From the IMG/VR virus record IMGVR_UViG_3300045988_152627: a DNA stretch of 46,969 nucleotides; one strand, written 5' to 3'. Below, one piece after another: positions 1-46,969 of this stretch. The position numbers and the translations under genes are program-made. The notes beneath the pieces are model-generated. The model did not search any database, was not told the DNA's origin, and saw nothing but the letters and a program-made list of their open reading frames with translations. Each line of letters opens with the position of its first letter. The stretch's first letter is position 1. The stretch comes from a virus (Duplodnaviria; Heunggongvirae; Uroviricota; Caudoviricetes).

Positions 1-119
1 AGTATTTCGAATCCAGGCAAGGATTGAGTCATTTTCAAAAGTAAGCCCACCGGACAAGGTATCGCCATTTTTTTGCACGGCGTTACCAGCCCTGTTTACC
101 GTTTCCTGCAAACCGAGGT
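1..119. repeat. Left arm of a perfect 119-bp inverted repeat (reverse complement of 46851..46969)
   Basis: Direct comparison of the first 119 bases with the reverse complement of the last 119 bases: identical, then diverging at 120. Confidence 0.9.
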
Positions 120-18754: not shown

Positions 18755-19315
18755 TTATTCTTCCTGCTTAATAAATCGGGATTCCTGGAGCGCCTGAAGC
18801 GCAAAATTAATCTCGTCTTCAATAATGCGTTCGATCTCCCTGGCTGTTTTGCCTTCACAACGGGGAGCTGCTCTTGGAGCAATACTAAATAAGCGGCTAC
18901 GCAATTCATTAGCTGCCAGAAATGCATCATCCCTGACCGCATCTTTAGCGATGAGAGAGCCTTCCTTTTCTTCAAATTCAAGGCGTTTCAGCTTTGCCTG
19001 ATAAATTTTTTCTGCGGTCTTAGCCTTGTTGAATTGCACCGCAACACCGGAAGTACCACCAGCTAATCCGGCATCATCAGCGGGTAACTCTGGTTGTTCC
19101 GAAGATATCCCATGCCCTCTTTTTCCATTTTCAGCAGATACCTCACGACCAACCTGTCGGCTCGCTTCATAAGCCGCACTAGCTTTATCAAAATCCAGCT
19201 TGCCGCTTTTCAGCACTGGAATGCGACCGGAACGACAGAGCTTCGTAACCATTGCCGGAGAAATACCTTTCCGGCGGGCAAACTCTGACTTACTGACGAT
19301 GGCCATTACTTGCAA
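18755..19315 (-). CDS. Terminase small subunit, Nu1-like
   Basis: 186 aa with an N-terminal winged-HTH-like segment, immediately upstream of the large subunit. Confidence 0.6.
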   Translation of the reverse strand: MQVMAIVSKSEFARRKGISPAMVTKLCRSGRIPVLKSGKLDFDKASAAYEASRQVGREVSAENGKRGHGISSEQPELPADDAGLAGGTSGVAVQFNKAKTAEKIYQAKLKRLEFEEKEGSLIAKDAVRDDAFLAANELRSRLFSIAPRAAPRCEGKTAREIERIIEDEINFALQALQESRFIKQEE

Positions 19316-19896
19316 CCATTAGCAAGATACTGAACAAATCCCTCATGCGTTTCATGCGCGTCGTGGTACTGACGATAAACATCCAGCAACAATGCAATTT
19401 CCATATCCGTCGCGGGAATACGTTCTTTATCAATAGCCAGGTACTTAATTTGAACAACAGGGGAAGAATTATCGTCTTCTTCCTGCGGCTGTTCATCGCT
19501 TAACATTTCGTCAAGCTCTGCATCATTAAACCCAAGCAGATCAATATCAAAATCATCATCCATTAACTCTTTGACTTCTTCGGCCAGAAGCTGCATATCC
19601 CAGCCAGCATTTAAGGCCAGCTTGTTATCTGCAATCCTGTAAGCCTTCTTCTGTTTTTCAGAAAGGTTACTCAACCGAATCGCTGGAACTTTATCCATTT
19701 CCAGAATTTCGGCTGCTGCAAGCCGCCCATGCCCCGCAATCAGTTCATTCTTTTCATCGATCAGCACAGGATTAGTGAAACCGAACTCACGGATACTGTT
19801 CACCAACTGTTCAACCTGCTCATCTGAATGAGTCCGTGAATTTTTGGCGTATCTGAGCAGCTTACCGACTGGTAAATATTCGATTTTTAGAGCCAT
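19306..19896 (-). CDS. ParB/Srx-like nuclease-domain protein
   Basis: 196 aa; N-terminal ParB-box-like IDEKNELIAGHGRLAAAEIL. Confidence 0.75.
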   Translation of the reverse strand: MALKIEYLPVGKLLRYAKNSRTHSDEQVEQLVNSIREFGFTNPVLIDEKNELIAGHGRLAAAEILEMDKVPAIRLSNLSEKQKKAYRIADNKLALNAGWDMQLLAEEVKELMDDDFDIDLLGFNDAELDEMLSDEQPQEEDDNSSPVVQIKYLAIDKERIPATDMEIALLLDVYRQYHDAHETHEGFVQYLANGCK

Positions 19897-20452
19897 TTTT
19901 TAACCGCCATAACACAACAGGTTAAAGAAAACTGTTTAACTTATTGATACTAAAAGAGAAAAATGACGATCTTTTTACTCATAAAAATCACAAAAACCAG
20001 GATAATTATCTGATTTTATTAAGTTTTTATAAGTGAAAAGGATCTTGCGATGGTGTTTTGGTTAAAAGATTGGATGTATTTGCATGATTTATAACGATTT
20101 TTATCAGAACAACATCACATTGGTTAAAGATCTGCGCGTATCTTGATGATCTAAAAGAAAATTTTCTACTTTCTTTTTACCAGCACAAATACAGCAAAAA
20201 ATCACGTTTTCCCGATATTTTTCAATAAGATGAGTAAATTTCTTTTACCGCAACTTTTAACCTAACTTTTTTCACGTTTAGCTAGCCGAACATCGGGGTT
20301 CGAATGACCCGCATCCAACGCTTTTGGCCAGAAGGACCCAATTCTGCCGGACGATGAAACGATGCTCGTGCTCCCCCACAGACAGCCAGCGAGCGACGCT
20401 ACAGAACACAGTGAATACACTCTGCATAACAACACCATCAACCACACGATGA

Positions 20453-21172
20453 TTAACGAGAGAAAGTCTTAGAAAGAATGTCATCAATAGCCTTTGTGAC
20501 TTCATCAGCAAACGCATCCTCACCAGCACGCAGCGCCACGCCATGCCAATCAAGACGCTGCGAATAGTTAGGTTGCTGGATAAACGTAAGGATCAACGTA
20601 GGACGCCGCCCAACGCGCTGCCAGACGCCTGGTTGAAGCGGGTTACTTGTACCAGGTCGAACAACAAAAAACTCCGTAGGCTTGCCCTGACGGCGATTTT
20701 GATGCGCATCTCGCTGAACTCTTAGGCCAGATAAGACCTGCTGTAATTGCCCCCGCGAAATATTCCCATATTTGTCCAGCTTTGCGCCGGGACCAGGAGC
20801 AAGCTGCCAGCCGTTAGGCAAATATCCACCAGCCCTTAGCGCCCCTTCTGAGCGTTTGTACTGTCGTTGTCCACCTTCGATTTGCGGAGTCAACGTTACA
20901 GGGGCTGGCGTTCCTCCCCATTCACGAGCATACACAATGGCTGTAGGATCACTCTTCTTTGCGGCCAAAACGTAAGTAGAGTTCTGAATCCACGGCGTGG
21001 GCCTGTCAAATACCCGATTAATTTCATTCTTAATCGCAGCCTGAGAAGCCTTTGCCGTTCTGGTTGCCGCAAGCGCCATTGCGAACGGCAATTCGCGTTC
21101 TTCAAGGCGCTGGAGTTGTCGTTGAATATCCTGAGAAGAAAAATCCATCTTTATCTCAATTCTGTCAGCCAC
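20453..21172 (-). CDS. Hypothetical protein
   Basis: 239 aa ORF coupled to the ParB-MTase gene; no recognisable motif. Confidence 0.4.
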   Translation of the reverse strand: MADRIEIKMDFSSQDIQRQLQRLEERELPFAMALAATRTAKASQAAIKNEINRVFDRPTPWIQNSTYVLAAKKSDPTAIVYAREWGGTPAPVTLTPQIEGGQRQYKRSEGALRAGGYLPNGWQLAPGPGAKLDKYGNISRGQLQQVLSGLRVQRDAHQNRRQGKPTEFFVVRPGTSNPLQPGVWQRVGRRPTLILTFIQQPNYSQRLDWHGVALRAGEDAFADEVTKAIDDILSKTFSR

Positions 21173-21188
21173 CAGCGCCTCCTACACA

Positions 21189-22568
21189 CTACTTAATCAA
21201 CGGCCGGAAAGCCGCCAGCACATCATCAGATCGTCCGATTGTTGAACCACCAGGCAACGGCAACTCAAACTCAAAACGAACAGCTTTCTCCAGACTCGCC
21301 CAACTAAGGGAATCATCGTTAATGACGTGCAAATACCAGCTCTTACAGTTGAATATTGACCGCTTAATCCTGAAACCATGTACACGACACAACTGCTTCA
21401 CTTCATCATCAGAGTGAAACTTCTGGTAAAACCAGTGCCCCTTCCGGTACAACGCGGTAAAACCGTTATGATCAATAAAATAAAGCCGGCTTTTGGAACT
21501 CGCCGCTTGTGTTTGCTTCAGGACTGTTTCCAGCTCTCCACGGCTACGACCAGAAAAGAATATTGACCCACCAGCTTTACACAGGCCTTTCAGAACCGTC
21601 AGAACGGACCATTCAGCCTCGACACTATCGACCGAGTTCAAAACGCTATCGCAAATCACGTAGTCGTAACGCCCTCGCGTTTTTAAGTCGTCCACCAGCG
21701 TATCAATCATCCAGTTTGTTGCGGCCCTATCCAGAGTGTTTCCAGCGCCCTTACGGCGGAAAAGCTCGAGATCATGCAGGTTATATCCCTTTGCCCTGAG
21801 CATTCGCGCGTAGTCTCCCTGCCCCGAACCAAAATCAATTCCTCTTGGCGTCTTGGCAATGATCGGGAGGATCAACGACTCATACAGGTTTGATTTCAGG
21901 CTGCCACCATTACGCAACCGCATAAGCTGCGCATACGTCTGGATGTATGTTGTTTTCTCCAGATGAGAATACTCAAATACACCATAAGTTTTATTCAGAT
22001 AACTTTGGTATTTTTCCTTCTCAACATCAGGGATCACAAACACCGTTAGCGGTGTGCGCGTCATCTTCGCTGCTAATGCATACTGAGCACAGTGAATAAC
22101 CTCGCCAGACTGAGTAGCAACACACCCCCCCCACGGACCATACTTGATAACCAGTTCCGCTATGTTCTTTCGAACATATGCCATTTTCGCGCGCATATTG
22201 CCTGAGATCTGGCTTGCCGATACCTGAACAAAACCATGCTTATCTTCCAGACCGGACACCCTGCAACGCTCATCTCCGCTATCAAAATCCGTTCCGTTAT
22301 GCAGTTGGTTAAACCGTACTTCGTCGTATACCGTCGTTTCACAGGGCAACACATACACCGCAGCACGCGTTATTCCCAACTTACGTAGCGCCTTCGTCCT
22401 TTGGTGTCCCGCCACCAGCAAATCGCCGCGCACTATCAATGGCTTCACAAGCCCTAGCTCCCTGACGCTTTCCGCCAGCCTCGCAAGATCATCCTCACCG
22501 ATAAAACGCGGGTTATATTCCGCACCGCGTAGGTGCGTTATGTCGTAATTGAGGTGAAGCATCAGCAC
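21189..22568 (-). CDS. ParB/Srx-like domain fused to a class I SAM-dependent methyltransferase
   Basis: 459 aa; N-terminal LIVRGDLLVAGHQRTKALRKLG (ParB-like); C-terminal IDFGSGQGDYARML (motif I) and DYVICDSVLNSV; no DPPY/NPPY motif seen. Confidence 0.7.
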   Translation of the reverse strand: MLMLHLNYDITHLRGAEYNPRFIGEDDLARLAESVRELGLVKPLIVRGDLLVAGHQRTKALRKLGITRAAVYVLPCETTVYDEVRFNQLHNGTDFDSGDERCRVSGLEDKHGFVQVSASQISGNMRAKMAYVRKNIAELVIKYGPWGGCVATQSGEVIHCAQYALAAKMTRTPLTVFVIPDVEKEKYQSYLNKTYGVFEYSHLEKTTYIQTYAQLMRLRNGGSLKSNLYESLILPIIAKTPRGIDFGSGQGDYARMLRAKGYNLHDLELFRRKGAGNTLDRAATNWMIDTLVDDLKTRGRYDYVICDSVLNSVDSVEAEWSVLTVLKGLCKAGGSIFFSGRSRGELETVLKQTQAASSKSRLYFIDHNGFTALYRKGHWFYQKFHSDDEVKQLCRVHGFRIKRSIFNCKSWYLHVINDDSLSWASLEKAVRFEFELPLPGGSTIGRSDDVLAAFRPLIK

Positions 22569-23185
22569 ACCTCCCCAGCCAGCAATGCGGATACAAATCC
22601 GATATAGCTGCCATTATCATCAACATAACGAGACACCGCGCAGTCAAAACGATCCGCTTCCTCATCCGTTGCCGGGATTTTATGACCTCCAAATGACAGG
22701 TACTGAACTTTTACGCCTGATTTGGCCTCATCCTTCTCAAATGGGATATCCATACCCTCTGTGTCATCGTAGACCGCCGCACTCAATAAGTTATCCAGTT
22801 CGCGCTGAGTAAAACCAATTGAGTCCAGAGCAAAATCATCGGCCGCAAGATCTGCAAGCTCCGCGCTTAACAACTCTTCATCCCAACCAGCATTCAGCGG
22901 AATACGGTTGTCGGCCAGACGATATGCCTTCTTCTGATTCTCCGTTAGCCCTTCCAGAACAATGCAGGGAACATCATCCATCCCCAACTGAGTGGCCGCA
23001 GCAATTCGACCATGACCAGCAATTACAACGTTGTTCTCGTCTATCAGGATCGGATTAGTCCATCCGTACTCCTGTATGCTGGCAACAATCTGATCTACCT
23101 GCTCCACGGAGTGTGTGCGAGCGTTCTTTTCATAACCAATCAACACAGAAAGTGGTAAAGAAACCACATTAAGATGTTTTGTCAT
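22562..23185 (-). CDS. ParB/Srx-like nuclease-domain protein (paralogue of 19306..19896)
   Basis: 207 aa; LIDENNVVIAGHGRIAAATQLG and overall collinear similarity to the 196-aa ParB-like protein. Confidence 0.75.
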   Translation of the reverse strand: MTKHLNVVSLPLSVLIGYEKNARTHSVEQVDQIVASIQEYGWTNPILIDENNVVIAGHGRIAAATQLGMDDVPCIVLEGLTENQKKAYRLADNRIPLNAGWDEELLSAELADLAADDFALDSIGFTQRELDNLLSAAVYDDTEGMDIPFEKDEAKSGVKVQYLSFGGHKIPATDEEADRFDCAVSRYVDDNGSYIGFVSALLAGEVC

Positions 23186-26083: not shown

Positions 26084-26159
26084 TTGGTGGCCCCTACCGG
26101 ATTTGAACCGATGACCGTGCGATTATGAGTCGCCTGCTCTAACCACTGAGCTAAGGGGC
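26084..26159 (-). tRNA. tRNA with CAU anticodon, most similar to tRNA-Ile2 (ileX-type); elongator Met not excluded
   Basis: 76-nt cloverleaf GGCCCCTTAGCTCAGTGGTTAGAGCAGGCGACTCATAATCGCACGGTCATCGGTTCAAATCCGGTAGGGGCCACCA: 7-bp acceptor stem, D and T arms, CTCATAA anticodon loop, encoded CCA. Confidence 0.85.
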
Positions 26160-26329
26160 CATATTTGATCTGTTTGTCTGGTGTGGCGCCGCGCACGAAA
26201 ATCCCAGCCAATAAATTCAGGATTTTTGGGCGCGGCGGCATATCAGACAAACATGGTTGATGCGTGCGCCCATGAGAAAAGCGCATAGAATGTTGTAACT
26301 ATATATTTATATAATTATAGAAATATATA

Positions 26330-31085: not shown

Positions 31086-32153
31086 TCAGGCTTTCAATAG
31101 CGATTCTTTCAGATATCGGGCATCAGCCAGGGCGTTTGGAGTAATCTTGCGAACCCATGCATTACGGGTTGGACTCCACTTAAAGGCGCGTGATTTAAGC
31201 AGCGAACGAATGTTTGCCTCTGGTTTGCCAGGGAAATAAAACAGGATGCGGTTATCCTCTGGATCTATCTCCATAGAAAAGCCGTCGTATTCTTCGCGCT
31301 GTGCTCCTGTTACAGACTTGACCGATTCAAGCTCCTTAATACGGCTCTGTAGTCGTTTGATTTCGGCGTTATTGTTGCTCAGTGCGTATGAAGGGAATCC
31401 GATGCGCCCACAGAAATCTCCGGCCAGTAACTCTTTGGCTTCGCTTTCTGTAAACCTGAGATCGATTAATGCAGAAAGCTGCTGTAATTGGTCTTTTTTG
31501 TATTTGCGAATGGCCTTATTTGCGGCCTTCATTTTGACGTGTGACTTCATGCAGCCTTGCAGCTTACGAAGCAACTTAAATAGCGCATCAGGATCATCAG
31601 ACGAAATTCCATTACGACCAACACCTGCGGCTTTGCTCTCGTAGTGTGATGCTTTACTTTCGCATTCAACAAACGTTTTTCTGAATAACGCATCAGCTTT
31701 AGACAAACGGCGGCGATGGCCTTTCGCGCTATAATGGTCAACTAAAATCGGCTGGCCTAACGGGATCACATCCAACAGGTCATGCGCTCGCTTATGCGCT
31801 ACCGCACCTTCTTTTCTGGCTTTTTCTGCACGAGCAATATATCGGGCAAGACGCGCGTTCTGGCGTTCCTGATAGGTGTTTACGTAATCATCTCCGCGCT
31901 GCTGCTGTTCAAGCCATGCTTTGCGCAGATCTTCTGTTACGTCCACCAGCTCCGCAGGGATACAACCAGTTTGGGCTTCATAAGAGTAACCATCCTCATA
32001 GATACGCCCATCGTCTTCAACAAAGAAAAAGGTTTCGTGCTCATCGCTTTTGACCATACGACCATTAACATGGCGTAATAGGTAGCCAGTATCAGTGCTT
32101 AACAGGCTGTTAGGGTTGTTGATCCAGTCAGAAATAATTACTTGTTTATTCAT
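31086..32153 (-). CDS. Hypothetical protein (DUF3560-like?)
   Basis: 355 aa; first gene after promoter-leader cassette copy 2; family assignment by recall only. Confidence 0.4.
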   Translation of the reverse strand: MNKQVIISDWINNPNSLLSTDTGYLLRHVNGRMVKSDEHETFFFVEDDGRIYEDGYSYEAQTGCIPAELVDVTEDLRKAWLEQQQRGDDYVNTYQERQNARLARYIARAEKARKEGAVAHKRAHDLLDVIPLGQPILVDHYSAKGHRRRLSKADALFRKTFVECESKASHYESKAAGVGRNGISSDDPDALFKLLRKLQGCMKSHVKMKAANKAIRKYKKDQLQQLSALIDLRFTESEAKELLAGDFCGRIGFPSYALSNNNAEIKRLQSRIKELESVKSVTGAQREEYDGFSMEIDPEDNRILFYFPGKPEANIRSLLKSRAFKWSPTRNAWVRKITPNALADARYLKESLLKA

Positions 32154-34847: not shown

Positions 34848-35504
34848 ATGAAAAGCAACGACGAGAACATCAAGAAAGAAATAGGTCTGCGCATTCAGAC
34901 TCTACGGAAACAATCCGGCATGACTGCCGGAGATCTCCAGCAAGTCACTGGAATAGGCTTAAGCACCTTGCAGAACTATGAGGCCGGATTAAGACAACCA
35001 TCTATACCTGCCATCAAGAAAATCGCGCACGCCCTGAAAGCATCAGCGCCTTATATCGCGTGCTTAACAGATAACCCGTTCCCACCCCAGAATACTAACG
35101 CTCCTGTTATTCCTGGGCTTGTAGCTATAAAAAATGACATAGCATCGCACGCCGGAGAAAAGCCAGTGCTGGCGATAGAACAGGAGATTCTACGAAGCAA
35201 GAACATCAACCCATCGTCTCTGTCAGTTCTCCAGAGCAACGATGAGTTAATGTCACCAACAATATCCCCAGGCTCCCAAGTCCTGATTAATACAGACGAT
35301 ACAGAGATTCATGAGGGGATCTATGCCCTTGAAGACAGAAATGGCCTGGTTGTTTTGAGGCACTGTAGAGTCATACCGGGTGACAATGCTGTTATGCTGT
35401 CAACCGAAAGGGATGCTGAAATGAACACTAATCATCTGAATAACGAGGAATTTAAGCGTTATAAAGTTCTTGGCCGCGTAGTTAGTGTTGTCAACTGGTT
35501 ATGA
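34848..35504 (+). CDS. CI-like repressor (XRE HTH + S24/LexA-like C-terminal domain)
   Basis: 218 aa; HTH TAGDLQQVTGIGLSTLQNYEAG; C-terminal LexA/UmuD-like layout ending KVLGRVVSVVNWL. Confidence 0.8.
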   Translation: MKSNDENIKKEIGLRIQTLRKQSGMTAGDLQQVTGIGLSTLQNYEAGLRQPSIPAIKKIAHALKASAPYIACLTDNPFPPQNTNAPVIPGLVAIKNDIASHAGEKPVLAIEQEILRSKNINPSSLSVLQSNDELMSPTISPGSQVLINTDDTEIHEGIYALEDRNGLVVLRHCRVIPGDNAVMLSTERDAEMNTNHLNNEEFKRYKVLGRVVSVVNWL

Positions 35505-36106: not shown

Positions 36107-36775
36107 ATGGAGTCTCGACAAATGACTATCTCTGTAGGTATTTTCAACGGAAAAGGCGGCGTAACCAAATCAACAATTGCCCGTGCTTTAGCAGTTGCTT
36201 ATGCAAAGGCCGGCTGGAATGTATGCCTGATCGATATGGATGTGCTTAACGGAACGGTAACGCGTTGGGTACAACGCAGAATGGCCAACAATATCGAACC
36301 TGCAATCGCGGCGCAGCCGTGCGGCACGCCATCACAAGTCCAGAAAATCATCGAATCAGAAGTATACGACCTGGTTATCGTTGATGGCGGTGCCTACGCA
36401 TCTGAATCAGTACCGAAGCTCTCTGAATTTCTGGATATGGTTATTTTGCCAACCAGATTCTCTACCGATGACCTAGAAACCACCGTTAACACAGCTCACG
36501 GCATCGTTAAAAAGGGTGTACCAATCAAGAAAATTTGCATGGTGTTTTCCGGCGCGGCTGAAAACGAAGCTGACTATATTGAAGCCCAAGAGTACCTGGC
36601 TAATACGCCATACTTTGTTGTCGATAAGTACATTCCCCACAAGCCAGCTCTGAGCAAAGCTCAGGATAAGGGCTTAAGCCTCATTGAGTGCTCATACGTT
36701 GCGCCACGCAAAAAGGCAGACGACGTTATTCAGGGGATTATCAACCAGCTTGAGGCTCTGACTACTGCCGCGTAA
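36107..36775 (+). CDS. parA: ParA-family partition ATPase (small, type Ib)
   Basis: 222 aa with deviant Walker A NGKGGVTKST and later VIVDGGA motif. Confidence 0.85.
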   Translation: MESRQMTISVGIFNGKGGVTKSTIARALAVAYAKAGWNVCLIDMDVLNGTVTRWVQRRMANNIEPAIAAQPCGTPSQVQKIIESEVYDLVIVDGGAYASESVPKLSEFLDMVILPTRFSTDDLETTVNTAHGIVKKGVPIKKICMVFSGAAENEADYIEAQEYLANTPYFVVDKYIPHKPALSKAQDKGLSLIECSYVAPRKKADDVIQGIINQLEALTTAA

Positions 36776-36818: not shown

Positions 36819-37067
36819 ATGGCCGCACCATCAAAACCACCAAAGAAGAACAGCAAAGGCGTACCGCCATCGATCGAACAACCGCAGGTTTTCGACCCGA
36901 CTGAAACGCCAACCAGAACCAAATCAGGTGGGGCACAAATGGCGTTTAACGTCGACCCTGAATTTAAACGCGAGTACAAAACGTTCGCCAGCTCAATGGA
37001 TATGTCATTGAAAGAAGTGCTGACAAAATCTTTTGAGTTACTCAAGGCTCAATACAACCAGAAGTAA
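36819..37067 (+). CDS. ParG-like ribbon-helix-helix centromere-binding protein
   Basis: 82 aa; Pro/Lys-rich tail then RHH-like MAFNVDPEFKREYKTFASSMDMSLKEVL; directly downstream of parA. Confidence 0.6.
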   Translation: MAAPSKPPKKNSKGVPPSIEQPQVFDPTETPTRTKSGGAQMAFNVDPEFKREYKTFASSMDMSLKEVLTKSFELLKAQYNQK

Positions 37068-37279: not shown

Positions 37280-37295
37280 ATTCAACCATAAAAAA

Positions 37296-37311
37296 GGCCC
37301 CCGAAGGGGCC
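37296..37311. terminator. Bidirectional terminator hairpin GGCCCCCGAAGGGGCC
   Basis: Perfect GC-rich hairpin flanked by an A-run upstream and T-rich sequence on the opposite strand. Confidence 0.55.
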
Positions 37312-37877
37312 TAATCGCTACTTGCTGCTAATGTTTATCGTCACATTCAGAGCGTTATCAGTAATCTTCCAACCCTCCCCATGTGGCGTAAACAAAGCCC
37401 CAGTAACAACGATAAAAATACACATACAGTATTTTTTCATTGTATGGCCCTTACAGGCCGTTTCACGGCATCCCCACCGACGAAAACAACGCGAGAGCAA
37501 GCACGGCTGCTTGTGCTTGCATGTACGGCAACAGGAAATCCTCCCCTAAAGTCGGTGCCCGGGTGCGAATCGGCGGGAAGGTCCACAGGTATTTTACGAT
37601 TATTTTAAGATTAGTAATAGGAAATAAATTAAACGAAAAAACCAGTTTATTTTCACAAAATCAGTAACCTACCCACAATCTGTGAGTTTGCAGACACAAC
37701 AAGAACCACAATTTTTTGAAGCATAATAGTGGACTATTATTACCTTTTGGGTAAAATCAACTTGCTGCTTGTGCTTGCGTGGTTGTTTATACAACAACGT
37801 AATGCTGAAAGGACCGCGAATCCGATCAGCACGAAAGAACCGTCCTCAATAGGGCGGTTTTTTTGTTTCTTCACTCA

Positions 37878-38569: not shown

Positions 38570-38864
38570 TGTCTCTGTTAAAATCCCGCCGTATTGACAT
38601 GAATGCGCCATTGGTGGACACTTTCCGAGCCGTAGCAAAATCTACGGTCGGGATTAGCCTCCTGAATAACACGATGGCGCATACCGCGTTAGCGGTTTTT
38701 TTATGCGTAGAGCACTGTTACGCCCAAATTATGGTGGGTCGTACAGGGGCGGAGAAATCCGCGCCGGTTCGTCATTGTGTCCGGTAAGGCTAACCCTGTA
38801 CGGCTCACCACCATTTGATTAGCCTCGAATGGCGGTGATAGTTCCATATATTGGAGATATCACA

Positions 38865-39056
38865 ATGACAAACTTACCCCATGACTATTACGTCAACCTC
38901 GTAAAGATCCTTCTCAAGAAAGCCTCATACGCCGATAAATTCCGCCTGGCTGAAATAATCGAGCGCGAAGCTATGCGCATCGCCAGCAACGATAACGCTG
39001 TTTCTGACGCAAAAATCTCCCTCGTAACCAAAGTAGTTATGGGAGGTGCAAAATGA
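38865..39056 (+). CDS. Hypothetical small protein, coupled to the antirepressor
   Basis: 63 aa from ATG 38865 (RBS GGAGAT); stop overlaps the antirepressor start. Confidence 0.35.
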   Translation: MTNLPHDYYVNLVKILLKKASYADKFRLAEIIEREAMRIASNDNAVSDAKISLVTKVVMGGAK

Positions 39057-40195
39057 AAACGCTTCCGACCGTTAACACCCTACAGCCTATCCTGCATAAC
39101 CAGATCCCCGTTATCACCACGGAGCTGCTTGCCAAACTATATGGCTGTAGCGTCGAATGTCTTCACAGAAATCACCACCGTAATAAGTCCCGGTTTACAG
39201 AAGGAAAACATTTCATAGTTGTAAAAGGTACAGATCTCCAAAGTTTGAAAATCTCTTTAAGAGATTTTCAAACCATCGCGAATAACGTTAGAAAGCTCAT
39301 CCTCTGGACCGAACGCGGGGCTGCACGTCACGCTAAAATGCTCGAAACCGATCAGGCATGGGATGTATTCGAACGGCTGGAAGACTGCTACTTCAACCAG
39401 AACGCGCAAACGGCCGCGACCGTAACCGTCTCACCAAACAATGCTCGTGAGGTTGTCGATACGCTCAACGCTAAACCAATGTATTACGTTAAGGTGTGCA
39501 ACAACGAGCCACTCACAACCTCAGCCGATGTTGCCCAAGCATTCAGCACCACAAACAATTCCATCGTTATGGCCATCGATGCGTTACGTATTCCTCGCAC
39601 AGCTGCGGCGCGTCACTTCTTTAAAGAACAACGACCGCTGGAAGGAAGCGACCGCGAAATAACAATCTATCGCATGACAAAAGACGGATTTACCTTGCTC
39701 ATGGAAAGTATCGACGGTCCAGGCGTGAAGGATATCAAGCTGGCCTACATTGAAGCCTTTAACGCTATCAGCAGCGTGTTAAAGGCAGAATACGAGCGAA
39801 TGCTATACAACCGACTGTATCAGGAAACAAAGATTATCCGAACGGCAACAGAACATCATCGGCTATTAACGGAACCAAACTACCGCAAGACACTAATCAA
39901 AGAATTTGACAAGGCGACGGAGAAAACTAAAGCGGCACTAAATCTACCAACAATGACTAAAGATGATGTGATATCAGCCTTACTTCTTGATCTGCTCAGA
40001 AACGCCAGAGCACTTATCAGTTTTGACGAAAACCTGAATCCTCAGCTCAAGCTACTACCACCGACAGGCAAAGTAGTCGACCAAGCAGATCACAACAGCA
40101 TACTCAGCGTACTGGATGCAAACCTGCCAGCCAGGACACTACAGGAGCTGATAAAAATATCTGCGGATAAACTGGCCGCAGGTGCAAAACCATAA
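39053..40195 (+). CDS. Phage antirepressor (KilA-N/ORF6N-like N-terminus plus Rha-like domain)
   Basis: 380 aa; N-terminal ITTELLAKLYGCS...KHFIVVKGTDL and central TSADVAQAFSTTNNSIVMAIDAL resembling the Rha motif. Confidence 0.65.
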   Translation: MKTLPTVNTLQPILHNQIPVITTELLAKLYGCSVECLHRNHHRNKSRFTEGKHFIVVKGTDLQSLKISLRDFQTIANNVRKLILWTERGAARHAKMLETDQAWDVFERLEDCYFNQNAQTAATVTVSPNNAREVVDTLNAKPMYYVKVCNNEPLTTSADVAQAFSTTNNSIVMAIDALRIPRTAAARHFFKEQRPLEGSDREITIYRMTKDGFTLLMESIDGPGVKDIKLAYIEAFNAISSVLKAEYERMLYNRLYQETKIIRTATEHHRLLTEPNYRKTLIKEFDKATEKTKAALNLPTMTKDDVISALLLDLLRNARALISFDENLNPQLKLLPPTGKVVDQADHNSILSVLDANLPARTLQELIKISADKLAAGAKP

Positions 40196-42945: not shown

Positions 42946-43245
42946 TCAGATGTTAAACGCTATTCGTTTTCCTGTGGGAAGCTCAACATCCAGGCTTAAT
43001 TTGCCTCCCATAGCTTCAACGTAACGCTTTAATGTCGCCAGCTTTAAATCATTTCCGCGCTGCTCCAGCTTTGTTACTGCTGGCTGACTAATACCCATCG
43101 CCTCAGCAACCTGTTTTTGTGATAACTGGAGTTCTTCACGCATCATCTGCAAGCCGACCTCAAGAATCATCTCATCTGCCATTTCTTTAATTCGCGCCTG
43201 GCTTTCAGGTGAACGGCTGGCAATCACCTCATCTAATGTTCTCAT
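42946..43245 (-). CDS. higA: HigA-type HTH antitoxin
   Basis: 99 aa; HTH LSQKQVAEAMGISQPAVTKLEQ; downstream of and overlapping the toxin gene. Confidence 0.75.
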   Translation of the reverse strand: MRTLDEVIASRSPESQARIKEMADEMILEVGLQMMREELQLSQKQVAEAMGISQPAVTKLEQRGNDLKLATLKRYVEAMGGKLSLDVELPTGKRIAFNI

Positions 43246-43598
43246 TACTTGCTCTCCAGTGTGTTCAGATGTGCTGCAAACTCATCCTCAGCTATACGCA
43301 CCAGTTTTTCATAAAACCGTTTATCGTTACTTTTGTCTCCTGCACAAAGAACGATGGCCCGGCGAATCGGATCGAACGCATAAAAGGCTCTTATCGGACG
43401 GCCAGAAAACTGAACGCGAAGCTCTTTCATATTTTTGTACCGAGAACCTTTTACGGTATCGGCATATGGCCTGGGTAACTCAGGTCCGTAAACCTGTAGC
43501 TTTTTCAAATCAGCCAAAACCTTTTCCTGAAGAGCGTCTTCTTGCTCATTTAGCCAGTCGTCAAATCGCTGGCTAAAAAGTACCGTCCACATGCTCAA
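43245..43598 (-). CDS. higB: RelE/ParE-superfamily toxin (HigB / Gp49-like)
   Basis: 117 aa; toxin-first order with a 1-bp overlap to the antitoxin; sequence pattern typical of HigB-like toxins. Confidence 0.75.
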   Translation of the reverse strand: MSMWTVLFSQRFDDWLNEQEDALQEKVLADLKKLQVYGPELPRPYADTVKGSRYKNMKELRVQFSGRPIRAFYAFDPIRRAIVLCAGDKSNDKRFYEKLVRIAEDEFAAHLNTLESK

Positions 43599-44127: not shown

Positions 44128-44423
44128 ACATCTGTTTTGTCATCAATGAAGATTAACCCTAACCCAGCGAAGTAACACAGCAGCGCCCAGGCTGCATACG
44201 GAATGCTGGATCTGGATGTGGACTCCTTTAACATCTGCCAATTGCGAACATTGCGACTATCTTTTAGGCCAAGTTTTTTGGCCAACTGCGAGCCGCTCAT
44301 TCCGGTCAGGCCAATGACTGCCCGAACTTCTCCACATGTAGGAGATTCCCATTCATCCGCTTTTTTTAAACAAGCCGGATTCAACATTTTTAAAACAGTA
44401 TCTTTATCCATAACCATCTCCAT
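44124..44423 (-). CDS. Hypothetical HTH-like protein with C-terminal hydrophobic helix
   Basis: 99 aa; HTH-like MSGSQLAKKLGLKDSRNVRNW and C-terminal AAWALLCYFAGLGLIFI. Confidence 0.35.
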   Translation of the reverse strand: MEMVMDKDTVLKMLNPACLKKADEWESPTCGEVRAVIGLTGMSGSQLAKKLGLKDSRNVRNWQMLKESTSRSSIPYAAWALLCYFAGLGLIFIDDKTDV

Positions 44424-44469
44424 TTATTATATCTACGATGGTAGGAAATCTTTTCCTATGTGGCAATAG

Positions 44470-45054
44470 AAATTTACTACATTGCGTATAAGACAAGTTT
44501 TCTATGTCTAATAGGAAATGATGTTTCTTATGTTTTATCGCGTTCTGATGGCTACTGTGTGCGTATTTATCGACGTTTATTGATAAGGCTCACCCCTTCC
44601 TCCTGCAAAGCCCGGCCGTAGGCCTTATTTCGGCCTTATATAAATTGATTTTGTATAGTTCGAAACGCGCCGTTTCGAAAAGGATGATCAGGCTGCACCA
44701 TGCCTCCGGCAAGTGCCGGAGGAGGTATATTTGAGCGTAGCGACTCGAACCGGCGCGAGCTTTAGCTCGCTGCAAGGGCGAACATATTCACAGGCAAAGC
44801 CTGTGTAAGTTAAATAAAGAAAGTCTTAATAAAAGAAAGTGATTTTGCATTTATTTGTTTAGTGCATCTATTATAAAAAACCATTTGCATATACATATCA
44901 AAACTGTGGATAACTTGATTAGCTGATGCCTGTAAAGGCGATATTTACGCTGTGTTCAAGTTTAGAAAAAATCAATTCAGCCTGTTTTTTGAACAGATAT
45001 TTTATTGCGACGTAGATAATCCTCCGGTAAAACCGGATTCATCATTCAGGTGGG
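44470..45054. promoter_or_regulatory. Candidate plasmid replication origin (oriR-like) downstream of repA
   Basis: Non-coding region with an AT-rich stretch (44800..44900) next to a consensus DnaA box; position relative to repA as in IncFII replicons. Confidence 0.5.
44905..44913 (-). promoter_or_regulatory. DnaA box (TTATCCACA on the minus strand)
   Basis: Plus-strand TGTGGATAA, exact match to the DnaA box consensus. Confidence 0.6.
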
Positions 45055-45903
45055 TTAATGCTGGAGTGATTTCCAGGTCTTTCTTAGCCTGTTATAACGC
45101 TGCTCAACGAGGGATCGTAAATATGCAAGGTCAGCTCCAGGATACATGCCATCAGCAAATTCCTGGCTAACCTCTCTAGTGATTTGATGACGAAGTTCGG
45201 CCTCTCCCTTTTCCCGAACAAGACGCGCAGCTCTCTCCGCTGCTTTCTGTTTTGCCTTTATCTCTCTAGCCGTCTTCCTCTGACGCCATACATTCTCCAT
45301 CTGCTCCTGAATAACAATACGCTTATAATCAGCCTCCGTTATCGCTTTTTTAAGCCGTTCGCTATTCTTCGCATTGAAGTAATTAAGTTTCTGGCTAACC
45401 GCACGTCTCCATGCTTGTTCAGTAATACCAACGGTTTCCAGAAGTTGATCACGAATCTCTATTTTCGCTGGCCAATACTGTTTATTCACCCGATCCCAGC
45501 GACGTTCATAATCAATAAAACCTAACGCTTTCAGTTGCGACAACGCCCTTGTACAGCGCGTTATAGACTTGTTCCCAGCTTCGGATACGGTAGACAGGCC
45601 GCAAAAATCAGCCAACGCCTCAGCACTGGCCAGAACCCGCTTAGAAATGATGTTTACATGGTGCAAAATCGCAGCAATCACAGCATTAATCGCCCGACGA
45701 CGATGCTCGTTTATCCGGCGTTTCCGCTCTGACGGTTGATTAACGTAGAACGCAACCTCACACGTAAGATCACGACCATTAATGCGCTGTAAAGCATCAG
45801 ATAACACCAGCGGCAGCTTGTGCGTATGGTGCTTTGGAGGCTGGAACTCCGGCGACAAATTACAAACGTAAGCTGAACGTAGAGACTGCATTGGTCTATC
45901 CAT
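45055..45903 (-). CDS. repA: Plasmid replication initiator RepA, IncFII RepA1 family
   Basis: Segment RRAINAVIAAILHH...GNKSITRCTRALSQLKALGFIDYE parallels RepA1 RRAIDALLQGL...GKLSITRATRALTFLSELGLITYQ; start taken at the internal ATG 45903 (about 282 aa); the longer ORF to 46041 overlaps the antisense RNA. Confidence 0.8.
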   Translation of the reverse strand: MDRPMQSLRSAYVCNLSPEFQPPKHHTHKLPLVLSDALQRINGRDLTCEVAFYVNQPSERKRRINEHRRRAINAVIAAILHHVNIISKRVLASAEALADFCGLSTVSEAGNKSITRCTRALSQLKALGFIDYERRWDRVNKQYWPAKIEIRDQLLETVGITEQAWRRAVSQKLNYFNAKNSERLKKAITEADYKRIVIQEQMENVWRQRKTAREIKAKQKAAERAARLVREKGEAELRHQITREVSQEFADGMYPGADLAYLRSLVEQRYNRLRKTWKSLQH

Positions 45904-45947
45904 ATGTTCGCTCTTGCGTCCACGGAAAACCAACGTATAATGGGAGT

Positions 45948-46036
45948 TGTCGAGGCGCCCATGGATTGTTGTTGGTTTTTGTTTCTTTCCGTGGATGTCG
46001 CAAGAAGCCCGCAGATTTATCTGCGGGCTTTTTGTT
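45948..46036 (+). ncRNA. CopA-like antisense RNA candidate (countertranscript to the repA leader)
   Basis: Plus-strand promoter TTGCGT-N16-TATAAT (45914..45941), stem-loop AAAACCAAC/GTTGGTTTT, and terminator hairpin AGCCCGCAGA-TTTA-TCTGCGGGCT plus T-run (46006..46036). Confidence 0.5.
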
Positions 46037-46077
46037 TCCATATCTGGTCACTTTCCAACCAGACACCCACAATCATA

Positions 46078-46092
46078 ACCACGTTACGTGGT
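46078..46092. promoter_or_regulatory. Operator-like palindrome ACCACGTTACGTGGT upstream of the repA leader
   Basis: Same CCAC-N5-GTGG pattern as the repressor operators, between the invertase stop and the repA control region. Confidence 0.4.
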
Positions 46093-46222
46093 TTTAAGAG
46101 AACTCTACCACAACACTTTCGGTCATGCACGAAGTCTCTCACTGATCGAACGATAATCCACCAGTAAAAGGATCTAAATTGGATCTCGTTTTGCGAGCAT
46201 CATACTACTGGCCTAACTCCAG

Positions 46223-46777
46223 TCAATGATTCCCAGCCGGAAACCTGCGGTAAAGCGTGGATAAGGTAACATCGAAGATAATCGCTATCCGCTTACGTGA
46301 AACACCATTCGCAATAAGCCTTCCGATCTGTTCCCATTGCTCTGGTGCCAGTTTTGAGCGACGTCCTCCTATCCTGCCGTTAGCCCTTGCCACCGCCAAT
46401 CCTGCACGCGTTCTTTCAATCATATTTTCCCGCTCCATCTCTGCGACTGCACTCAGCATCGTGTAGGCAAAGCGGCCAATTGAAGTGCTGATTTTTATCC
46501 CTTCCGTAATTGAAATAAACTCAATGTCGTTTGATAAAAAATGGTTAAGTAAATCAACAAGATGAATCAGAGAACGCCCCATTCGGTCCAGCTTCCAGAC
46601 AATAACCGTATCGCCCGGTCGTAACACCTTCAGTAGCTTATCAAGTCCTGGTCGTTTTGATTTAGCACCGGATATTTTATCTTCAAAAATCCGGTCACAT
46701 CCTGAACTCCTGAGCGCCTCCAGTTGTAATTCCAAATTCTGGTCAAAAGTTGACACCCTCGCATAACCATATTGCAT
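46223..46777 (-). CDS. Serine-recombinase DNA invertase, Gin/Cin/Pin/Hin family
   Basis: 184 aa starting MQYGYARVSTFDQNLELQ (catalytic Ser motif); C-terminal HTH GGRRSKLAPEQWEQIGRLIANGVSRKRIAIIFDVTLSTLYRR closely parallels Gin. Confidence 0.9.
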   Translation of the reverse strand: MQYGYARVSTFDQNLELQLEALRSSGCDRIFEDKISGAKSKRPGLDKLLKVLRPGDTVIVWKLDRMGRSLIHLVDLLNHFLSNDIEFISITEGIKISTSIGRFAYTMLSAVAEMERENMIERTRAGLAVARANGRIGGRRSKLAPEQWEQIGRLIANGVSRKRIAIIFDVTLSTLYRRFPAGNH

Positions 46778-46841: not shown

Positions 46842-46867
46842 TTCGCAAAAACCTCGGTTTGCAGGAA
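46842..46867. other. gix/cix-like invertase crossover site, right copy
   Basis: TTCGCAAAAACC-TC-GGTTTGCAGGAA; inverted relative to 103..128, sharing one half-site and core; 65 bp upstream of the invertase start. Confidence 0.6.
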
Positions 46868-46969
46868 ACGGTAAACAGGGCTGGTAACGCCGTGCAAAAA
46901 AATGGCGATACCTTGTCCGGTGGGCTTACTTTTGAAAATGACTCAATCCTTGCCTGGATTCGAAATACT
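46851..46969 (+). CDS. Start-codon-less alternative tail-fibre C-terminal segment (partial, runs off window end); also the right arm of the inverted repeat
   Basis: Plus-strand frame encodes LGLQETVNRAGNAVQKNGDTLSGGLTFENDSILAWIRNT, identical to the minus-strand tail-fibre frame at 1..119; no start codon or RBS. Confidence 0.65.

Follow-up and report, generated by a model that had tools for sequence, protein, structure and literature searches.

A temperate myovirus genome that is very probably kept as a circular phage-plasmid by an IncFII/IncL-M-family replicon with predicted countertranscript control

The 46,969-nt stretch of viral DNA analysed here (IMG/VR record IMGVR_UViG_3300045988_152627, Caudoviricetes; hereafter the window) is very probably, at a probability of roughly 0.85, almost the whole genome of a phage-plasmid: a temperate myovirus of E. 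coli that persists in its lysogens as an unintegrated circular plasmid, by means of a replicon of the IncFII/IncL-M RepA family with predicted countertranscript copy control. The only part missing from the window is a ~3-kb invertible tail-fibre segment. In the mechanism proposed, RepA would act at an origin immediately 3′ of repA, as layout and conservation suggest. The elements of this origin would follow the order of an IncFII oriR, starting with a CIS-like hairpin and going on to a DnaA box, three ATGCA repeats and AT-rich DNA. A strong promoter inside the repA leader would drive a ~90-nt countertranscript, which would set the copy number. The ParA, toxin-antitoxin and countertranscript features suggest that this number is low.

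The window starts and ends with the two copies of a perfect 119-nt inverted repeat, and no host DNA flanks either contig end. In near-identical circular records, these 119-nt repeats bracket a ~3-kb invertible tail-fibre segment beside a Hin/Gin-type invertase; the ~3 kb that lies between the repeats in OR545055 (20209..23170) is absent from the contig. Because the contig ends are the repeats of an invertible segment in circular relatives, the contig is taken to be the whole replicon minus a segment that short-read assembly could not resolve. The invertible segment is of the Mu G / P1 C type, and the contig ends match the boundary of the Mu G segment at 94–96% identity.

1..119: left inverted repeat of the invertible tail-fibre segment, with the right copy at 46851..46969
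46223..46777, minus strand: small serine invertase of the Hin/Gin/Cin type for the tail-fibre segment, 184 aa; Pfam Resolvase and HTH_7; adjoins the inverted repeats

The replicon stretch (44424..46222) is found in 71 of 5,426 complete E. coli genomes (~1.3%), at 82 places, all of which are on plasmids of 32–57 kb and none on a chromosome. A nucleotide search showed the origin region to be common to 65 PLSDB plasmids, all non-mobilizable and most of them 46–52 kb. About 60 complete PLSDB plasmids in this size range carry the replicon, and the PLSDB carriers include the 48.5-kb plasmid of the quality-control strain E. coli ATCC 25922 (NZ_CP009073). Near-identical genomes have also been deposited as phages. 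Three circular records of ~49 kb, OR545053–55 (Yersinia phages vB_YpM_39/41/44; host Y. pestis EV76), are 98–99% identical to the window across nearly its whole length; the terminase is 100% identical to those of all three, and the 20-kb virion block is 99% identical to that of vB_YpM_44. In these phage records RepA is labelled merely as a hypothetical protein. The ATCC 25922 plasmid and the three Yersinia phages are the same element as the window, with the same gene order at 98–99% identity, and they differ from it in a few short accessory segments and in small indels in the loop of stem-loop I (SL-I) of the countertranscript. The proposal of the first-pass annotation, that a temperate phage lysogenises here as a plasmid, is supported by the plasmid-borne location of all 82 E. 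coli places and by the deposition of near-identical genomes as phages.

Head genes of the window encode a GpA-type terminase, a lambda-family portal, a ClpP-like protease and an E-type capsid protein. The tail genes encode a P2-type tube, a gpD-like protein, baseplate J, gpI and a tail fibre, and two holins and a GH108 endolysin make up the lysis genes. All the large structural, lysis and regulatory open reading frames (ORFs) are intact. Profile matches agree with the earlier description of a lambda-type head joined to a P2-type contractile tail, and the head, tail, lysis and immunity modules are complete, as had been claimed. Scans of non-structural ORFs of at least 140 aa and of ten head and tail proteins revealed neither a tyrosine nor a large serine recombinase, and the remaining structural block carries structural names only in the annotation of a 98–99% identical plasmid by the Prokaryotic Genome Annotation Pipeline (PGAP). 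The Hin/Gin-type invertase at 46223..46777 is the sole recombinase, and the reported absence of an integrase holds for the scanned ORFs. Nor is there an att-like tRNA junction: the one tRNA gene (26085..26160, minus strand, anticodon CAT) is internal, lying between the lysis genes and a methyltransferase gene. It is read as Met by ARAGORN and in one phage record, and as Ile by PGAP in the ATCC 25922 plasmid. In gene content the window is a phage-plasmid: it carries genes for plasmid replication and partition beside those for virion, lysis and immunity, and it has no integrase. For this type of element, a separate extrachromosomal replicon is documented by its plasmid-borne places in E. coli.

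A P1/P7-style immunity region is found at 38629-40195 and contains an isrK-like RNA (65.7 bits) and a C4 antisense RNA (70.8 bits), both matched by Rfam, a 75-aa ORF and an ORF6N/pRha antirepressor gene. Because a separate gene for a CI-like repressor is also present, the element apparently has two layers of immunity.

34848..35504, plus strand: CI-like repressor; Pfam HTH_3 at E=4.5e-11, and Peptidase_S24 at E=0.0026, a weak match below the family cutoff

The ORF that contains repA (45055..46041, minus strand) matches the Pfam family PF02387 (IncFII_repA) at E=1.3e-43 and 149.8 bits (cutoff 22.9), over residues 55-321 and model positions 2-272 of 275. RepA matches the NCBIfam model NF040977 (RepA_IncFII_LM) at 232.3 bits (cutoff 70), over model positions 1-266 of 266. 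These full-length matches above curated cutoffs place it in the IncFII/IncL-M RepA family.

45055..45891, minus strand: repA, replication initiator of the IncFII/IncL-M RepA family, 278 aa; PF02387 and NF040977

The earlier placement of repA at 45055..45903 holds in its family match and reading frame but not in its start codon. The in-frame ATG at 45903 would give 282 aa, whereas the start that is kept in relatives is the ATG at 45891 (MQSLRS), and PGAP calls a protein of 278 aa in NZ_CP035864. Since the start codons of relatives with 81–85% identical RepA (277 aa) align with ATG 45891, the gene is placed at 45055..45891. A 328-aa ORF from ATG 46041 was rejected as the real RepA, that ATG being absent in the relatives with 81–85% identical RepA; its extra 50 codons overlap the countertranscript target.

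RepA relatives of 81–85% identity are found in Salmonella and Klebsiella aerogenes, and relatives of ~60% in Citrobacter freundii and on metagenomic contigs. From 60 to 100% RepA identity, these elements share a neighbourhood of tail fibre, optional invertase, repA, origin, toxin-antitoxin, antirepressor, ParA and CI-like repressor, although the ~60% lineage has a Mu-type baseplate instead. The closest full-length RepA seen outside phage-plasmids is 63% identical and is encoded on a metagenomic contig with type IV secretion system (T4SS) genes. Annotated PLSDB plasmids outside the group give at best a 36% identical full-length match, from a KPC resistance plasmid. No phage record other than those of the three Yersinia phages contains this RepA, and a PDB sequence search with it returned nothing useful.

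The repA region of the window was compared with that of relatives (L005–L012 and others) spanning 36–100% RepA identity. Downstream of repA, the order of elements is kept throughout this range: a CIS-like hairpin, a DnaA box, ATGCA repeats, AT-rich DNA and a cluster of hairpins.

45021..45037, minus strand: CIS-like hairpin, TCCGGT-TTT-ACCGGAGG, then GGAGG, just 3′ of the repA stop codon; compensatory changes in all relatives
44905..44913, minus strand: DnaA box TTATCCACA, consensus, single copy in the window
44886-44890, 44863-44867 and 44846-44850, minus strand: three ATGCA repeats, candidate RepA-binding sites, in every relative down to 36% RepA identity
44808..44841, minus strand: AT-rich stretch, candidate unwinding element; 60-nt windows of up to 78% A+T
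44585..44807, minus strand: conserved cluster of hairpins (H1, H2, H3 and two more) distal to the origin; covariation

The CIS-like hairpin differs little in sequence from that of a classical IncFII plasmid (AATCCGGCCCGAACCGGAGG there, AATCCGGTTTTACCGGAGG in the window). The consensus DnaA box lies exactly where it had first been reported. A perfect box is found 132–143 nt past the repA stop codon in the window (+142) and in L006, L010, L007 and L012, and a box with one mismatch is found at the corresponding offset in L009 and L008; in the classical IncFII plasmid the box is at about +178, with AT-rich DNA beyond it. The box counts as evidence through its position; its occurrence alone is not significant. 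The AT-rich stretch occupies the position of the AT-rich end of the IncFII oriR, as is partly visible in the classical plasmid compared here. The position of these elements suggests that RepA may bind the ATGCA repeats and that the AT-rich DNA may unwind. A CIS region, a DnaA box, a candidate RepA-binding region and AT-rich DNA are therefore present 3′ of repA in the layout of an IncFII origin, and this layout supports the earlier remark that the non-coding DNA is in the usual position of oriR, despite the lack of nucleotide similarity: the origin has none to IncFII oriR, and a PLSDB search with it returns only this plasmid group.

The distal hairpin cluster has no Rfam match. Its H2 stems covary (GAGC/GCTC, GGAC/GTCC, GGCG/CGCC and GACG/CGTC) across 36–100% RepA identity, its flanks CCGCCCTTGCAGCG and CGCGCCGGTTCG are invariant, and its G·U wobbles are on the strand that carries the repA sense. 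The cluster may act as a signal for primase or for single-strand initiation, or it may form a structured RNA through read-through.

Upstream of repA, the leader contains predicted promoters on both strands and a predicted countertranscript.

46199..46226, minus strand: predicted repA sense promoter TTGACT-16-TATGAT; 10 of 12 consensus matches; overlaps the invertase stop codon
45914..45941, plus strand: predicted countertranscript promoter TTGCGT-16-TATAAT, on the strand opposite repA and 23–50 nt upstream of the repA AUG
45948..46037, plus strand: predicted countertranscript of ~90 nt, analogue of CopA/Inc RNA; SL-I at 45954..45999, terminator stem-loop II (SL-II) at 46000..46035, U tract

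Both hexamers of the sense promoter are kept in a four-sequence leader alignment that includes L006, which has no upstream invertase. For the leader, relatives were divided into lineage 1 (RepA 81–100% identical) and lineage 2 (RepA ~60% identical). The countertranscript promoter is invariant in lineage 1, and its -10 hexamer and the following GGAGTTGTCGAGGC are kept in lineage 2; strong antisense promoters are found at the same position in the T4SS plasmid (63% RepA) and in the KPC plasmid (36% RepA). The predicted RNA folds with a minimum free energy (MFE) of -41.4 kcal/mol (z=-7.1), and none of 200 shuffled sequences is as stable. The two-stem-loop consensus, the 5′ end of the RNA and its promoter are kept in both lineages, with compensatory changes at a few pairs, while the stem sequences are otherwise unrelated. 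A CopB (RepA2) gene is absent upstream of repA: the invertase stop (46223) and the leader are only ~180 bp apart, and this interval holds no conserved ORF. A search of genome contigs with the 5′ motif of the countertranscript gave one match, in a Bacteroidales metagenome-assembled genome, which was discarded as chance.

The U-rich loop of SL-I (45967-45988) carries small T/G-rich indels among replicons that are ~98% identical, with eight variants at about 14 loci; the loop was compared in the window and in L001, L003, L019, L006, L009, L010 and L025. Such a pattern would be expected if the loop determined incompatibility. In none of the complete E. coli genomes does the replicon occur on two separate records.

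A long-range switch in the leader could provide the means by which the countertranscript acts on repA, and we give it roughly even odds on the basis of predicted folds. Three segments of the leader would take part.

45971..46004, minus strand: leader segment A, 5′ arm of the long-range helix and SL-I target, from folds
45913..45934, minus strand: leader segment C, 3′ arm of the helix, outside the countertranscript, from folds
45889..45907, minus strand: leader segment D, ribosome-binding region of repA with its AUG, which C is predicted to close

In the free leader, A would pair with C and the repA ribosome-binding site would stay open. Binding of the countertranscript to A would free C, which would then pair with D and turn RepA translation off. 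In MFE and RNAalifold predictions, A pairs with C in a helix of ~20 bp in all 18 distinct leaders, which come from two lineages with unrelated arm sequences. Folds in which A is blocked in silico show C paired with D instead, and the unpaired probability of the ribosome-binding site falls from ~0.6 to 0.13–0.28 in nine of the ten lineage-1 leaders. Since the countertranscript carries a near-copy of C, it should compete with C for A.

It is possible, though less probable than the switch just described, that the countertranscript is real and acts in another mode: by blocking a leader peptide coupled to repA, as with tap in R1, by RNase III cleavage or by attenuation. The main contender among these is a tap-like leader peptide. 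An ORF of lineage 1 that begins at the AUG at 45962, inside the countertranscript target, spans the repA start, and lineage 2 has an upstream ORF with an ATGA overlap to repA, an arrangement typical of coupling. However, AUG 45962 lacks a Shine-Dalgarno sequence, is not found in lineage 2 and varies in frame relative to repA within lineage 1. A leader peptide from this AUG was not adopted, as it is not conserved across the lineages. Between segment C and repA there is also no hairpin followed by a U run that resembles a terminator. The extra ORF before repA in lineage 2 is 158–162 aa long (L007 9516-10004; L011 9528-10004), has the ATGA overlap and is mostly deleted in L012. In L011 it has its own PF02387 match, and it may be a partial duplication of repA that acts as a coupled leader ORF.

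Several results weigh against the overall reading of the window as a phage-plasmid under such countertranscript control. RepA shares 38% identity with R100-type RepA over just 105 residues (BLASTP), and classical IncFII RepA proteins on plasmids give 31–41% identity over 29–45% of the length (tblastn). Because of this distance, the mechanism is carried over from R1/R100 only by analogy. Against the strict IncFII model TIGR03474, RepA scores 79.3 bits, below the cutoff of 446.9. Rfam recognised neither CopA nor another replication-control RNA, in the window at gathering thresholds or in 44400..46300 at E up to 10; the latter search picked up the terminator hairpin alone, under unrelated families. 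Covariation is thin, with two and one double-changed pairs in the countertranscript within the two lineages, and with two double compensatory changes in the A:C helix of lineage 1 and none in lineage 2. In the A:C helix of one relative there is a C·A mismatch, and in L009 blocking A closes the ribosome-binding site to a negligible degree (0.49 to 0.45). A DnaA box in itself is within chance, as 0.49 are expected in the window and 39 of 100 shuffled sequences contain at least one; L011 and L005 have none at the conserved offset. Finally, no separate lytic replicon was recognised, be it O/P-like, RepL-like or another initiator.

The label IncFII-type, given in the first-pass annotation, therefore applies to the protein family and to the order of elements, from the antisense promoter through repA, the CIS-like hairpin and the DnaA box to the AT-rich DNA, but not to the IncFII group. 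The similarity to R100-type RepA and the TIGR03474 score, the lack of a CopB gene and of a match to Rfam CopA, and MOB-suite typing in PLSDB, which gives no replicon type for two near-identical plasmids, place the replicon outside strict IncFII RepA and the IncFII replicon type.

Partition and addiction genes are also present.

36107..36775, plus strand: ParA partition ATPase, small and type Ib-like; Pfam CbiA/ParA/MipZ; PHROG 164, ParA-like, E=2e-39
36819..37067, plus strand: 82-aa partner of ParA, putative centromere-binding protein by position and size only; PHROG 6024, unknown function
43245..43598, minus strand: HigB-like toxin (Gp49); Pfam Gp49 at E=5.7e-23; RelE/ParE-family toxin according to PGAP
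42946..43245, minus strand: HigA-like helix-turn-helix antitoxin; Pfam HTH_3 at E=3.9e-10

A partition cassette of ParA and a ribbon-helix-helix protein had been proposed. The ParA is confirmed but the ribbon-helix-helix fold is not, the 82-aa partner having no Pfam, NCBIfam or PDB sequence match. The HigB/HigA addiction module, in turn, is recovered by Pfam. Beside the partition genes is a full-length Rfam match to ryfA (37290..37586, minus strand; 143 bits, E=7e-37) with a small hydrophobic ORF (MKKYCMCIFIVVTGALF...), which may be an additional type I toxin locus beside HigBA. Three proteins with a ParB N-terminal domain are encoded beside the terminase genes (19306-23185, minus strand), one of them fused to a methyltransferase domain (459 aa). 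A role as ParB/Srx-type nucleases or as modification enzymes is more likely for these than partnership with ParA, and a 2022 preprint takes such ParB genes as ambiguous evidence for a plasmid stage.

Other explanations of the window would place the replicon, or the phage, in a different role. An ordinary integrated prophage, with an integrase and attachment sites just outside the window, is extremely improbable. The window is indeed a contig with open ends, and the nearest characterised relative of its virion module, the Vibrio phage X29, is integrative. However, both ends are the 119-nt invertible-segment repeats, the missing ~3 kb are tail-fibre genes in circular records, and complete circular relatives of 47–49 kb have no integrase. 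None of the 82 E. coli occurrences is chromosomal. The shortening of some relatives (records of 32 kb and 39 kb) and the several short segments that differ from the phage isolates would fit a decaying prophage on a plasmid, that is, a phage-like plasmid unable to make infectious particles. This is unlikely, though less so than integration, given the intact large ORFs of the structural, lysis and regulatory genes and the identity of the virion block (99%) and terminase (100%) to those of deposited phages.

The RepA module might also be a recently captured fragment of a conjugative plasmid, or the scar of a cointegrate, rather than the element's own maintenance replicon. The RepA relatives at 63% and 36% identity do sit on T4SS/conjugative resistance plasmids, and IncFII replicons are known in some phage-plasmids of the P1 and pMT1 groups, where they are listed as Inc types. 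Against capture stand the gene order kept across RepA lineages of 60–100% identity and two baseplate types, the lack of a second replication initiator and the lack of insertion sequences or transfer genes nearby, and we consider it very unlikely. For a RepA that is the element's own, a further and doubtful possibility is that its origin is the sole replicon, serving both plasmid maintenance and lytic growth, in which case the SL-I loop variants would be immunity or incompatibility subtypes. P1, by contrast, has separate plasmid and lytic replicons. The late tail-fibre and invertase genes lie directly 5′ of repA and share its strand, and their read-through transcription could therefore overwhelm the countertranscript and release RepA synthesis after induction. 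Besides RepA, the sole hint of a phage-encoded replication function is a DUF3560 protein in the early operon (31086-32153, minus strand), residues 173-351 of which match a primase-annotated PHROG (E=2e-37, partial).

Phage-plasmids pass genes from phages to plasmids and back, and they often go undetected in standard plasmid or prophage pipelines. Surveillance and annotation would benefit if a distinct group of ~48-kb phage-plasmids with an IncFII-family replicon were recognised, and the element would offer a compact system for studying how plasmid replication under a countertranscript can coexist with lytic growth. No concept is changed, as phage-plasmids, IncFII-family replicons within them and antisense copy control are all established. 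The pairing of replicon and virion, which had been singled out for comparison with known phage-plasmid groups, is not new to the databases either: the element is common and has been sequenced many times, and it is apparently unnamed. No published description of this group, or of the three vB_YpM phages, was found in the literature, and the 2022 preprint lists partial copies as prophages, without inferring a plasmid stage for them.

The element belongs to none of the named phage-plasmid types considered (P1_1, P1_2/D6, N15, SSU5, pHCM2, pSLy3, pKpn, pMT1, pCAV, AB_1 and cp32). The named E. coli types span 72–125 kb, and N15 (40–66 kb) is a linear siphovirus; pSLy3 and SSU5 were ruled out as its group, being siphoviruses of at least 100 kb. 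No link was established to the published Y. pestis plasmid-like phage HQ103, this RepA being found in no further phage record. In a megablast search against phages, coverage of at least 80% was reached only by the three Yersinia phages, and nucleotide similarity to the P1-like SJ46 is limited to the invertase region.

The replicon resembles the IncFII basic replicon (R1, R100/NR1: copB, copA, tap, repA, CIS, oriR) in its RepA family, in the predicted two-stem-loop leader countertranscript of ~90 nt and in an origin 3′ of repA with a near-identical CIS-like hairpin, a DnaA box and AT-rich DNA. It differs in having no CopB and no tap-like leader peptide kept across the lineages, and in the position of the DnaA box (+142 rather than ~+178). 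In the I-complex and IncL/M plasmids (IncB pMU720, IncI-alpha ColIb-P9 and IncL/M pMU604), long-range pairing between the antisense target loop and a sequence adjacent to the ribosome-binding site is needed for Rep translation, and the antisense RNA competes with this activating pairing. The leader modelled here would be similar, in that a countertranscript with a copy of C would compete for A, and NF040977, which RepA passes, covers RepA of both IncFII and IncL/M. Those plasmids form a short pseudoknot, whereas the leader of the window is predicted to form a ~20-bp helix with the antisense promoter inside it, which would prevent closure of D by C.

Like phage P1, the element is a temperate myovirus with a circular plasmid form, partition and addiction genes, an invertible tail-fibre segment with a Cin/Gin-type invertase, and an immunity region with C4 antisense RNA and an antirepressor. 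It is smaller than the P1 group (~48 kb against 72–125 kb) and has a lambda-type head and a P2-type tail. It carries an IncFII-family RepA with a predicted countertranscript in place of an iteron-controlled IncY or p0111 RepA, and neither a repL-type lytic replicon nor Cre/lox was recognised.

Outside the group, the closest characterised relatives of the virion module are the Vibrio phages X29, phi 2 and Rostov 7, temperate myoviruses of 41–46 kb whose terminases are 63–65% identical to that of the window. Of these, the X29 record (L029, NC_024369; terminase 63% identical) was read gene by gene. It has the same order of ParB-like nuclease, terminase, portal, ClpP protease, capsid E, sheath, tube and P2-type baseplate. 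Where the window has RepA and its origin, ParA and toxin-antitoxin genes, however, X29 has two tyrosine integrases and O-like and DnaC-like genes. Compared in this way, the two genomes look like the outcome of a lifestyle-module swap, integrative in one and plasmid in the other, on a common virion chassis.

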